Assembly: GCA_020137815.1 (NCBI GenBank) | Contig: CM035351.1 | Span: 3,410,001-3,474,000, forward strand | Length of the DNA: 64,000 nucleotides | From: Hormiphora californensis | Taxonomy: Eukaryota > Animalia > Ctenophora | Direction of reading: 5' to 3' | Part shown: positions 40,301 to 49,300 of the stretch, piece by piece | Numbering within the stretch: position 1 is the stretch's first letter | How the letters are laid out: each line of letters starts with the position of its first letter | Made by a program: the position numbers and the translations under genes | The notes under the pieces: model-generated | What the model was told of the DNA's origin: nothing | Seen by the model: the letters and a program-made list of their open reading frames with translations, nothing else | Databases searched by the model: none

Positions 40301-43300
40301 CTGGTATTCATCCATGTGCTGTCCATGTAGTTAATGAACTCCTGCGTAGAAGGATGTTGAAGTAGCAGGTCAGACTTTATCTTGTTCCATGCTGGTACAA
40401 TCTCTGAATGGGGCAGGAAGGGAAGTCCGAAAATGACGTGGATGTCGGTCCTCAACTGACTATCAGATGCCCAGCCAGGAATCTTGCACAATCTCCTCCG
40501 CCAGGCTTGGAACAGGTGGAAAAGACATCCCTGGAGTGGAGTATTGGGAAACAGCTCCTTCACTGCGTTGTGCATCGGAGTTTCGAAGTCCACAGTGATC
40601 TGGGAAGGATTCCACGATGATACCTTATCCTTGAGGGCTTTCAGAGCTGTGTAGTAGGATTCTTTTTTCTTGTCCTCTAGCAGACAATAAGCCACAGGAA
40701 TATGATCGAAGACACCGTTCCTTCCAATACGTACTCGGACTATAAAAACCTAAAATGAGAGTGGGTGTTATTTTTACTATAGACCGTAAAACTAAAAATC
40801 GGTACCACTACCTATGTATTATATCTGATATATCTCGCGTAATATATCTGATATATCTCGCGTCGCTCACATACACACACAAACTGTCGTACCTGCTCAA
40901 ATCCTTGTGGGGCAGTTTGGAAAGTTCCGTCCAGAAAACACGGGCTGTCAGTCAAATGTTCCAGACTCCTGTCAGTTGCAAACACTAAAACTCGCTTTCC
41001 ACTTCTTGATGTGACCGTGTCTTGAAGAAGGAATCTATTACCCTCAGTATCAACCTGTTTTGAGAGAATTTATTAGGGTTACAATACATACAGAACATCA
41101 ACTACAACATTTAGAATTAAACGGAACTGCTAGCTAATATCAATTGTTTTAAGTAAATGAATGACTTACCTGGAACTCGGGGGGGATAACATCAGTACTA
41201 TCTGGTTTTATTGTGAGTTTCTCTCTTGCAATGAGTTAACCCAAGTTTGAGATCTATGCAACTACCATTCGGCTAAATACATTTCCAATTAAACAGTATT
41301 TTTACATACTATTCACCATGAATGTCATATTGGTATCGTTGGTATGTACTCGTTGGTACAGAGGGTGAAATAGGGGGGTCAGATGCCCTGTGTACCAACG
41401 AGATCTCATTAACCTATCGTTGGTACACAGGGCATTTGACCCCTCCTTTCTGCCCTCTGTACCAATACTTCCAGTACCTAATTGGTACTGGGGGTATTGG
41501 TACAGAGCGTATTGGTACTACGGGTGTGATTCAGTTGGATATATCGTGTATATTGTAGACTGCGTAGTGCGTAGCGTGAAGTATGTCTGGCTGTATGCTA
41601 GAGATTGTGCGTGTAAGATGTCTATGGTGTCTGCGTGATGCAGTATTATGTGTGTGAGGTTAGTTTCGATCACAAGCAAGATGATTGGTGAAAGTAGAAT
41701 ACATCTCTAGTCTCTAGACTGTTTTGATCTCTCTCTATCTCTCTCTCTCTCTCTCTCTCTCTCTCCCTATCTATCTCACCATCATGCACATTAACCCCCA
41801 GGTGTCTAAGTCGAGATGTCTCAACACGGGAATCGTCACAACAAAGAATGTAAAGGAGGTCCCAGCACTACAGAGTTACCTGACATTCGGTCATGAGTTA
41901 GGACATAACCTTGGATCACCGGTATACATAGACTTTGATTTTAGTAGAATGATTGCCACTGAGCCACTTTCCCCTTGCAACAGTTTTAGAGTCACAAAGC
42001 ACGATCTAGCCACTGTTGTGTTACTATCTCTAATACTACTAAGTTTTAACCCCCTCTTTCTGACAGCACGACCCCAGTATGTACTTACTAAGTTTTAACC
42101 CTCTCTCACTGACCAGCTATTACTAATAACTCTTCCCTCTGACAGCACGACCCGGAATCCTGTTCCCCTGGTTCCAGTAACGGCGGCAACTTCCTGATGT
42201 ATCCCCACGCTAACACTGGCCATGATGAAAATAACAAGAAGTTGTCCACCTGCAGTAGGGATATCATGGGACCCATCCTATCAATTAGGGCTACCTGTTT
42301 TAAAGGTAATTAGTGTGAGGGAATTTTTAGGGCTACCTATTTTAAAGGTAATTAGTGTGAGGGAATTGTTAGGACTACCTGTTTTAAAGATTAGTTTGGG
42401 ACCCATTAGGGCTACCTGCTGATTTTGGGACGTGCCTACTGTCTTGAAAAGGAGAGGGAGATAACAAAACAATAATAATAAAATAAAAAGTTTTGTATAC
42501 CGCCCAGGCAAAACAGGGCCAGAAAACGTTTTTGACTGACACTGCTCGCTCAGACGGTTACCTAAATTAAAACCCCTTTTCTTTGACACCACTATTAAAA
42601 TCTGGTTTAAACACACCATGATAGACTTTTATTATAAAATCGGCCTCAAAAAATCAACCCAACTTAGATAGCAAAAAGCTCCACACTGAATAAGCAAAAT
42701 TACAAAGTCAGCAGCTCTCATGCTATCAAAGACAGCACCCTTCAAAGCTTTTAAAAAAGTCACGCAAAACGCAACCCCGGGTAAATGTAATGAGGAATAA
42801 ACATGTCAAAAAAAAGTCTCCTAAGGGGGAACCTACCCCAACCAGAACAAACCAGGGACCCAAAGACGAATGCTCAGGTGCTACTGCTCCGGGGATAACA
42901 AAAGCTTCCTTAAATACCCGGGTTTTAACCCTTGTCTTGAGATTTAAAACAGGTGACAGACCAAAACCCCAATGGCAGGGATTCCCCATTTCCGGCAGGA
43001 ATACGAGATCCTCCTTCTTTTTCTTAGAATTCGCTTTCACACTTGAGGCTTTGGATATTCAACCAAAAGAAACTGGAACTGAGGTGAGGGGTAGGTTTTA
43101 CGGTTTTGGGTTGTATCAGAGGGCCCGGGTCCATCAAATTGGGGTTGCAGTGCCCGTAAAATCTTGTACCCAAAAGCATGCCTTGGAAAGTCACCTCGCT
43201 AAATTAGTCCTTTAGTTAAAAATGAAACGCACAAAAGAATTCAGGGTCTTTGAAGATACCTCAAATCCTTTTGGGTATCCAAAAAAGGATTTTGCATAAT

Positions 43301-46300: not shown

Positions 46301-49300
46301 ATCTGTCTCGAAAGAAAGTCGGACAGAGCCCTTATTAACAAATGTATTGAGTACAGGGACCCCCTTGAGCGCAGATTCCACCTTTGGCTTCACAAACTCA
46401 GCCCACTGCTTCTTCGGACATACCGGAGCCGCAGAATCATCTTCATCCACTTCAAGCTTAATATCCACATAATGCTTCATCGGTAACACCGGTTCTGGTT
46501 GATCCTCAATTCCACTGTTCCCATCCTCTTTCTTATCCAGTATTTTCGATACTTGATCATCAACTCTCCTCTCAATGGTCGCTAGAAGATCAGTCTTCAG
46601 GCTTTCAAAACTTTCCTTCAATACCTCCAGGGAACCTGCATCCATCGTTGAGCTAGTGCCGCTTTCAAACCGGGTTCTGGAGCTGCTGGGTATCAATGCA
46701 TATGCTGACACTAGAAGACCCCATACCTGCTCTCTGGTTGGGCCACTTGGACTGTTAGGAGGAGGAGTAATATCCCCCTCAAGCAGACGATTCAGAACAG
46801 AGCTACCCTTACACTTAGAATTAAATACCATACTCTCAAGAGCTCTATCAAACTCCTCTCTATTCGTAATACCATGAAAATTGTTCATCCTAAAACACCT
46901 GGCTCACACTCCTGGACAGAGATAAATCCCAACTCAGAACACTCACAGTACGTTCTTAATAAGCCCACAGAGATTCACGTAACTATAAGATATCGAAGAT
47001 TGGAAAATAACCTCTAACACGGATCAATCGATTATAAGTGGAACACTCAAATTAATTTGTTTAAAGTAGTGTTGAAAAGTTTGAAATAATGGTTACTTTG
47101 AATTTAATACCACATAATTCTTGGGAAACCTCCCTACTCTAATAACAGCAAGATAACGTCTTCCAACCTTGCACACCATACTTTGAGGAGATAACCCACT
47201 CTCATCTCTCCCTTCCCCCCTCTCTAGATAACCCGAAAGTGTGCGGTGATTTTGTGGTTGATGCGGATGAACAGTGTGACTGTGGTGACTCTGTCAGCTG
47301 TGAAAAGGACAAGTGTTGTAGTACGGATTGTAAATTTAGGGATTCATCCTTTAAATGCAGGTAATCAGGATGGGGAGCCATTCTTTGGGTAACCTCCTCT
47401 GACCTCTGAGTAGAGTGTAGACAATCTCTAGACATACAAGATACAGTAACCACTAACCTCATCCCTCCAACTAGTAACCACTAACCTCCTCCCTCCCCCA
47501 CCTAGTAACCACTAACCTCCTCCCTTCCCCGTCTAGTAAACTAACCTCCTCCCTCCCCCACCCAGTAATATGGACGGTGTGTGTTGTGATGTGGGTATCT
47601 GTAAACCATACAACAGTTCAGTCACAGCAAATCAGGTTCTGTGCAGCACAGAAACGGATTGCAGGAGGGCAGTACATTGCCAAGTGGACAACTATACCTG
47701 CCCCGTTGGTACGTGCAGTTCACACTGACAACTTGGCAATCCCAGGCACTCTGTAGTAGTAGTAGTAGTAGTATACTGACATCTTCAAACTGAAGCAGAT
47801 AACGTGTTGGCCCCAGTTACTTACTAACTTCCATAGTTTATCTAATAACTCATTATTGTCTCATTATCGTCTCATTATCTGATATTTATCTCCCCTCTCA
47901 TTATCTCATTACCACAGATGACGATCAGTACTTCAAGAATGATACCACGCTATGTAATGAGGGGACTCAGGTGTGCCTGAGGGGAACCTGCACTGAAAGC
48001 TTGTGTGTATTCAGCAACACTACCAGCTGTCAGGTATAATAAATATATACCCATATATGGGCATAACATACATTTGTTTGTTGTTCATGTTTTAATTACC
48101 TATTTAGTTGTTACTCGCCCCTTGCCAACACAAAGCCTAATTCATTGCAGTGTTATTGTACACGTGAATATTATTAGTGCTATAGCTCTCATGTACTAAT
48201 ATATTTTATTGATAATGGCTTACTGCAGAATATATTTCGAAATAATTTAACTTTAGAGAAATGCAATTTCGATTTAACTACTGTCTCGGGGGAGGTTTTT
48301 ATAATCCCGCTCCCTATTTGCACTAATAGGGGTGTCTCTCAGTCTCAACTAACTGTCATTCCGCGGCATGTTTTTTGCTGCTCCTAGCGCCATCAATGTG
48401 TGCACTGTGCGGTTGTAAAATTAGCAGAGAGAGAGAGAGAGAGAGAGAGAGAGAGAGAGAGAGAGAGAGAGAGAGAGAGAGAGAGAGAGAGAGAGAGAGA
48501 GAGAGAGAGAGAGAGAGAGTGAGAGAGAGAGAGAGAGAGAGAGAGAGAGAGAGAGAGAGATGGACAGTTTAAGGAAGTTGGAATTTCTCCGCAGTGTACA
48601 GAAGAGGAGAACAAGTGTATGTTGTGCTGTGAGAAAGAGATTGACGGGGAGAAGCAGTGTCTTCTAGCCACCGAGGAGAATTTCCCGGGAGATATACAAA
48701 CGAAGCTCAATGAAACAACGAAGCGACTTCAGCCAGGTACATGCTACAGATTATATATGTAACAAAGTATCGGCAAATATATCGGCAAATATCGGCAAAA
48801 TTATCGGCAAAATTATCGGCAAATATATCGGCAAATCATGTTGGTTGGTTTGTTTGTGTTAATTGTACCATGTGTAGGAACATAATGATTTAATCTCCCA
48901 ATGTTCAGGAAGTGTGTGTGGGGATAACATGGGGTACTGTGATATCTTCTATACCTGCCGGATAGTGGACGCAGATGGGCCTATTGCTAGCTTGGGCAAC
49001 TACATCTTCAACGGGGTCCTCTTCGATTCAGCTCGGAACATGGCAATCCAATATTGGTAAATGGAGGGCGCGACGACATGACAATGGGAAAAGTGGCGCT
49101 GCGCGCAGTGTAACAAAGTGCGCGTTCACTGACCCCTCATCTTTGTTGTTTGTCTCCCAGTTTTTGTCAGTTTGTCCCTTCGTACTCGAATGTACAACTA
49201 TTTTACAACACCCTTCATTTCAGGTACTACTGCATTATGATGGCTATTGGTTTACTGTGTTTCATGGCCGCCTTCATTGCAGTTTGCAGCAAGACTGTTA

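Follow-up and report, generated by a model that had tools for sequence, protein, structure and literature searches.

A stretch of 64,000 nt from contig CM035351.1 of the ctenophore Hormiphora californensis (hereafter the window) carries a long interspersed nuclear element (LINE) that begins with a copy of the spliced leader (SL) of its host. Related LINEs in metagenomes begin with the same leader or a similar one wherever their 5' untranslated region (UTR) is complete. Judging from these sequences, we propose that in this ctenophore LINE clade the RNA is trans-spliced in each round of copying, and that the last AG of the old leader is the predicted acceptor for a fresh one. We consider this reading probable.

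Spliced leaders and similar sequences at the heads of a LINE clade

The head of the window LINE (47046-47086) is identical to positions 56874-56914 over 41 of 41 nt (self-BLAST E 9e-14). This identity with the start of an unrelated element at 56871 had been pointed out in an earlier note made from the sequence alone, which also named the sequence as the SL of cydippid ctenophores. The identification was correct: the head equals nt 4-44 of the 44-nt H. californensis leader given in PMC8527503, again at 41 of 41 nt. According to that source, 56% of Iso-Seq reads carry the leader, which also occurs at 718 places in the H. californensis genome; 491 genomic leader copies are reported for Mnemiopsis leidyi, whose leader ends in AATTTGAG too. 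Head and LINE meet at GAG|TGTTCCAC, at the precise end of the SL exon. As the note had seen, no GT follows; the signature of an SL RNA gene (a GT donor and an intron after the exon) is absent from the window junction, which reads GAG|TG and continues as LINE UTR. Spliceosomal trans-splicing is recognised by just such an exact join at the exon end with the SL intron missing. The leader was also expected at cDNA 5' ends, and in the oligo-dT run X12 it does head other mRNAs. It opens a 765-nt contig and precedes two ATG-started frames (loose ends), which we take to resemble ribosomal proteins. A search of viral contigs with the SL pattern gave 0 matches. An Rfam search of the window placed no ribozyme at either SL site, and the Rfam miRNA matches at these sites are below the cut-offs and are palindrome artefacts.

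The junction was compared in four runs (X1, X5, X12 and X14) of 22 that shared words, all of them as assembled contigs and not raw reads; runs with small word shares were left unused, except X12 and X14. X1 is possibly the source of the window itself, and X5 comes from a different sample and study. An X5 contig over 46961-47069 (0 differences) and a contig of the RNA run X12 over 46807-47066 (1 difference) both cross from SL into LINE, and the junction is therefore real. A diverged subfamily of the LINE in X1 and X14 (37 and 35 differences in 222 nt) likewise reaches 20 nt into the SL.

Searches with the first open reading frame (ORF1) found 27 relatives in the protein collection, and an alignment of 24 of them led to 44 metagenome loci. 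Nine distant loci (L036-L044; short matches, 27-64%) were excluded from the counts, leaving 35; none of the nine matched the window SL, and the seven viewed by eye had no obvious head. The 5' UTR is complete in 23 of the 35 loci, and in all 23 a head that ends in TTGAG lies 98-210 nt upstream of ORF1. At L018 just the last 6 nt of the head are on the contig. The other 12 loci have no visible 5' end: the contig starts within the UTR in L008 and L021 and within ORF1 in L007, L012, L014, L028, L030, L033 and L035, and the elements at L005, L020 and L023 look 5'-truncated. The count of copies that start with the SL at one junction, a check named in the note, thus gave an SL or SL-like head and no outron in 23 of 23, with the exact SL in 6. 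These six (44-91% ORF1 identity to the window) start at SL nt 2, 3, 4, 4, 5 and 14, never at nt 1. The remaining 17 heads are SL-like; they share the TTGAG end, several start with AGTTT as the published leader does, and they are common to unrelated elements. These variants may be the leaders of their own hosts. Where the contig reaches, the heads are free of G over the 27 nt before the final GAG.

Counting the window copy, the junction is followed by GT in 6 of 24 cases (L006, L017, L022, L024, L027 and L029), a donor-like GAG|GT that continues as LINE UTR. The base after the junction is G in 16 of 24 (binomial p 1.5e-7); as the elements are related, this enrichment was not counted as evidence. 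The first 6 nt past the junction are conserved across the clade. Upstream flanks of 16 loci showed no sharing (best local score 23), and no common intron-like sequence was seen in the 3' flanks inspected by eye. Tandem SL relics were found in none of the 16 loci with at least 25 nt of flank (8 of 24 had too little flank), and folding of head plus UTR in nine loci gave no common structure. A search for target-site duplications in 17 metagenome loci was uninformative, since the contigs probably merge different copies.

The heads do not follow the tree of the elements. Of 253 pairs of loci, 32 match at 96-100% over 27 nt of the head; ORF1 identity is 24-63% in 30 of them and 85% and 92% in the remaining two. 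The sisters L022 and L024 (ORF1 58%, N-terminal part of ORF2 80%) and the sisters L025 and L029 (52% and 74%) have heads that are 81% identical within each pair, and the heads are shared crosswise, L024 with L025 and L022 with L029. L013 and L015 are 77% identical in ORF1 and 78% in the head. The same sister pairs were obtained from the ORF1 tree and the ORF2 tree. Head groups had been assigned by head sequence ahead of any inspection of the tree, and monophyly was rejected for head types Q (3 loci), S (2) and T (2), with p values in the approximately unbiased (AU) test of 7e-59, 4e-48 and 3e-10. It is therefore likely that the heads are renewed from the current SL pool of the host and are not inherited with the element. 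L001 has the first 27 nt of the window LINE's 5' UTR unchanged, and L003 and L004 match them at 93%. The simplest reading of these alignments would be a head that is supplied and replaced by the host, with an inherited UTR behind it.

L013, L015, L016 and L018 are very close elements that come from different contig sets and have different heads; the N-terminal part of ORF2 is 91-92% identical for L013/L015 and L015/L016. Either horizontal transfer from host to host or a close relationship of the host species may lie behind this likeness.

Probable renewal of the head and competing explanations

The genomic copies have an SL or SL-like head, a fixed junction, ragged 5' ends and unrelated flanks. 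Trans-splicing of the LINE RNA before reverse transcription, as the earlier note had proposed, is the most likely origin of such copies; the template was very probably a trans-spliced RNA, with reverse transcription ending a few nt short of the cap. The ragged loss of the first 1-4 nt would then reflect a halt of reverse transcription near the modified cap. Such a loss in every round would erode the head over generations unless it were renewed. A transcript from anywhere upstream is probably re-spliced at the SL's own AG, the old head leaving as the outron. The upstream transcript could come from host read-through or from a promoter in the head or UTR. LINEs must regain a 5' end and transcription in each round, and the known answers are internal promoters, ribozymes and insertion into multicopy host genes. 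Re-splicing would restore a capped and precise 5' end and so would solve the 5' erosion of LINEs.

The choice of acceptor follows from what trans-splicing discards. Since the outron and its AG are lost, offspring can show the same junction only if the last AG of the leader is the acceptor, and use of an AG farther upstream would leave SL relics in tandem. The fixed junction, the discordance of heads with the tree and the lack of tandem relics (0 of 16) thus lend indirect support to re-splicing at the final AG of the integrated SL. Eight of nine head types have no other AG within the last 40 nt of the head, and since the 27 nt ahead of the final GAG lack G, the final AG would be the first one available.

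Several observations weigh against re-splicing at the old leader or weaken the case for it. GAG is a rare and poor 3' splice site in the eukaryotes studied, and a literature search on GAG acceptors yielded no paper. The heads show no enrichment of branch-point motifs (before correction, 2 of 9 were below 5% of shuffles), the window's head has no such motif, and the heads are just 52-63% pyrimidine. In Schistosoma, outron acceptors are reported to be less conserved than intron acceptors (PMC5832876), which makes a weak GAG site less unlikely. The window copy lies in antisense orientation to its host gene, an ADAM-like protease gene (42179-47360, +) in whose intron it sits, and the transcript of that gene therefore cannot feed this LINE. 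The 17 variant heads were not seen on mRNAs here. The search pattern for the junctions itself ended in TTGAG, and this ending was therefore selected for. Metagenome contigs are a collapsed consensus in which rare outron-bearing masters could be hidden, and contig-only runs cannot separate a re-spliced head from a genomically encoded one. The tree also holds contrary signals. All seven loci that carry the window's head fall into a single clade, and on their own they indicate stasis and not swapping, and head labels are clustered on the tree overall (12 changes versus 15 when shuffled). Different heads also occur under a common contig-name prefix (L010/L011 and L013/L015), which may be due to mixed hosts or to several leaders per host.

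Other explanations were weighed against these data. Each family might have a rare, long-lived master that has a promoter of its own and a normal outron with a YAG acceptor, the SL-headed copies being dead ends comparable to processed pseudogenes. Heads that match the host, the exact junction and the absence of relics would then be explained with a normal acceptor. Single masters could be missed in collapsed contigs, and L005 does lack a head. However, none of the 23 complete 5' ends has an outron, and L005 looks 5'-truncated because its homology to L006 begins only about 45 nt before the ATG. A master that loses its promoter and acceptor at each copying could not found new families, yet ORF1 identities of 44-92% are found under one head with the junction kept. 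Rare masters are thus unlikely. It is quite unlikely that the integrated SL or the 5' UTR is an internal promoter from which the RNA starts within the genomic head and is never trans-spliced, with occasional refreshing of the head by gene conversion or by template switching onto RNA that bears an SL. The SL has been proposed as a promoter for dinoflagellate retrogenes, where this would explain the few tandem relics (PMC6050394), and the clade-wide conservation of the first 6 nt past the junction would agree with an internal promoter. However, although 1-4 nt are lost at most insertions, SL nt 2-3 are reached in several families, which indicates that erosion is being reversed. Differences between head types reach to 5-9 nt from the junction, so that switching or conversion would have little homology to act on.

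The masters could also lie at the border of exon and intron within SL RNA genes and be driven by the promoter of the SL, in the manner of NeSL, SLACS and CRE, with the dispersed copies as by-products. The donor-like GAG|GT at 6 of 24 junctions resembles that of an SL gene, and concerted evolution of SL genes would refresh the heads. The endonuclease, however, is of the apurinic/apyrimidinic (APE) and not the restriction-like (RLE) type (compare PMC4640811), the upstream flanks of 16 loci are unshared, the inspected 3' flanks have no common intron-like sequence, and the window copy lies in the intron of a protein gene. We therefore regard such masters as very unlikely, and the distinction from insertion into SL genes that the earlier note had drawn agrees with the APE endonuclease and the unshared flanks. 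The chance that the head stems from a single template switch or from misassembly is negligible. ORF2 is prone to errors in the window assembly and a palindrome encloses the second SL, but contigs of independent runs cross the junction, which recurs in the 23 other loci with a complete 5' UTR.

If re-splicing at the old leader is right, SL trans-splicing would be a further answer to the 5'-end problem of LINEs, used across a whole animal clade. It would predict that the leader's own last AG can serve as an acceptor, and metagenomic LINE 5' ends could report the leaders of unsequenced hosts. It also offers a testable origin for the leader copies in the two ctenophore genomes, since many of the 718 and 491 copies are predicted to be heads of LINEs and other retrocopies. 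More tentatively, an old ctenophore LINE clade may have given up its own 5' end and promoter, with the SL as an acceptor at which any upstream transcript is trimmed to the precise start of the element and receives the current leader of the host. The first 44 nt would then be a piece of the host that is exchanged in every generation, and most of the unexplained leader copies may be retroelement heads.

The window copy, its surroundings and a second SL-headed element

The positions of the features are collected in Table 1.

Table 1. Positions, strands and supporting remarks for the LINE, its host exons and the second SL-headed element in the window
Feature	Position	Strand	Basis or remark
Whole LINE including SL head (APE-type, two ORFs)	42471-47086	-	Sequence comparison; empty-site contigs resume at 47085
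SL exon, nt 4-44 of the published 44-mer	47046-47086	-	Self-BLAST, published leader; first 2 nt overlap the target-site repeat
LINE 5' UTR, 157 nt, ATG-free	46889-47045	-	
ORF1, 436 aa, intact, C-terminal Cys/His knuckles	45578-46888	-	
ORF2 (APE endonuclease and reverse transcriptase), frameshifted in the window, 3' end approximate	42900-45578	-	
3' UTR and TTA-type tail	42471-42899	-	85% over 61 nt to the L003 3' end
6-nt target-site repeat/tail microhomology AATAAT, left copy	42471-42476	.	
6-nt target-site repeat AATAAT, right copy	47085-47090	.	2-nt overlap with the SL head
Host exon, metalloprotease-like, upstream of the LINE-holding intron, start approximate	42179-42306	+	Reprolysin_2 E 0.076, below cut-off
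Disintegrin-like host exon 3' of the LINE-holding intron	47212-47360	+	Disintegrin E 4e-4, below cut-off
Second SL-headed element, non-coding: inverted arm, SL (56871-56914) plus 148 nt, 42-nt unpaired 3' tail	56694-57062	+	
SL-free sibling of the second element, likewise inverted in layout, with an 11-nt target-site duplication	63507-63706	-	

The window copy has the hallmarks of a LINE insertion: a TTA tail, a 6-nt repeat with microhomology and element-free joins of the flanks in contigs. The description of it as full-length holds for its extent, and ORF1 is open; it does not hold for ORF2, which is not open in the assembly. The stop codon of ORF1 overlaps the ATG of ORF2 (TAATG), and the Pfam zf-CCHC match of ORF1 (E 0.074) is under the cut-off. 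In spite of many frameshifts, the window ORF2 can be aligned to the intact ORF2 of L003 (1072 aa) over aa 1-1061 of the latter. Its own open N-terminal piece (62 aa) has no Pfam match. In the three relatives tested (L003, L006 and L025), ORF2 matches both RVT_1 and Exo_endo_phos, and the Pfam listing on ORF2 of the relatives has only the APE endonuclease and reverse transcriptase. The reverse transcriptase motifs presumably resemble those of L2-like elements. The L003 ORF2 (L003:1515-4730) also has an in-frame Gly-rich tandem repeat of about 13 aa in some 8-9 copies between endonuclease and reverse transcriptase.

The damage to ORF2 is unevenly spread when the window is compared with a 2970-nt contig of X1, with 5 letters and 10 gaps over 45397-46589 and 18 letters and 50 gaps over the 485 nt of 43826-44310. 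The frameshifts are thus probably an assembly error. Positions 42001-45000 and 52001-55000 have an excess of homopolymer runs, probably in poorly polished repeats, and 100-N gaps are present at 10543-10642 and 52412-52511. A 735-nt contig of X5 connects both flanks without the LINE and a contig of X14 resumes at 47085, which indicates that the insertion is missing from other individuals. The empty allele of X5 (site 42461-47085) has about 160 extra letters relative to the window, which may reflect a target-site deletion or a separate indel. Contig depth in X1 is 473-631 on the LINE versus about 32 per flank allele, which hints at 15-20 copies and is not a copy number.

The second SL-headed element is flanked by a 14-nt target-site duplication (56680-56693 and 57063-57076), and its SL lies at the centre of a 328-nt palindrome. 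The first two letters of this SL are also part of the inverted arm, and a complete SL 5' end is therefore not demonstrated at 56871. An extra partial SL repeat is seen at about 56838-56872. Penelope-like elements, as described in PMC3846280 and PMC11167929, have head-to-head inverted arms, a tail of 30-40 nt and a target-site duplication; the second element matches this layout, with a slightly long tail of 42 nt. None of the 26 Rfam matches in the window is a hammerhead ribozyme, and neither the LINE UTR nor any of the 44 relative loci matches this element. If the Penelope-like layout is right, a second kind of retroelement, seen here in a single copy, would also have copied SL-bearing RNA.

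Elsewhere in the window, a complete metazoan signal recognition particle (SRP, 7SL) RNA gene is found at 57187-57482 (-), with 240 bits against an Rfam cut-off of 70. At 39448-41526, inverted repeats of 193 nt (95%) surround a 204-aa ORF (39961-40575, -), which we assume to resemble a DNA-transposon transposase. More long imperfect palindromes lie at 2085-2951, 6990-7312 and 16304-16509.

Comparison with known systems

The SL-headed LINE clade of ctenophores is only partly anticipated in print. We found no paper on SL-headed ctenophore LINEs or on tree-wide renewal of heads in a search that had most subscription papers outside its reach, and the available parts of PMC7986045 and PMC12460157 contain nothing on SL-headed LINEs. 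The passage of PMC8527503 on the unexplained ctenophore copies deals with the same dispersed 44-nt leader and makes no link to retroelements.

The closest likeness is found in flatworms, where leader exons without SL-RNA features are fused to retroelements. In PMC12582326, 597 loci with partial leaders on long terminal repeat (LTR) or LINE elements were discarded with the suggestion that trans-spliced transcripts had integrated, and PMC5832876 mentions six SL-headed retroelements. In those sources the cases are passing remarks without family analysis, junction mapping or a test of renewal, whereas in ctenophores a whole clade is headed and the heads depart from the element tree. The recycling of mRNA in dinoflagellates (PMC6050394, where Slamovits and Keeling 2008 is cited) is alike in that an SL is copied into the 5' end of DNA by repeated trans-splicing and retroposition. 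The SL-tagged retrogenes, however, carry host genes as cargo and multiple SL relics occur in about 20% of transcripts, while the ctenophore LINEs are autonomous and left no relics in 16 loci. In Hydra, about 30% of the Iso-Seq reads of transposable elements bear an SL (PMC12220107). Element RNAs there use host trans-splicing as well, but the description is at the RNA level and includes neither genomic SL heads nor a cycle.

NeSL, SLACS and CRE resemble the ctenophore elements in that a LINE lies beside SL exon sequence. SLACS and CRE target SL genes by means of a restriction-like endonuclease. The SL-specific NeSL is grouped with RLE elements in PMC4640811 and inserts into SL genes with such an enzyme, in contrast to the APE endonuclease and the dispersed, unshared flanks of the ctenophore clade.

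LINEs of the CR1/L2 group share with this clade the two ORFs, the APE endonuclease with reverse transcriptase and the tandem-repeat tails. They differ in the 5' start, which is encoded by the element in CR1/L2 LINEs and is the SL of the host in the ctenophore clade.

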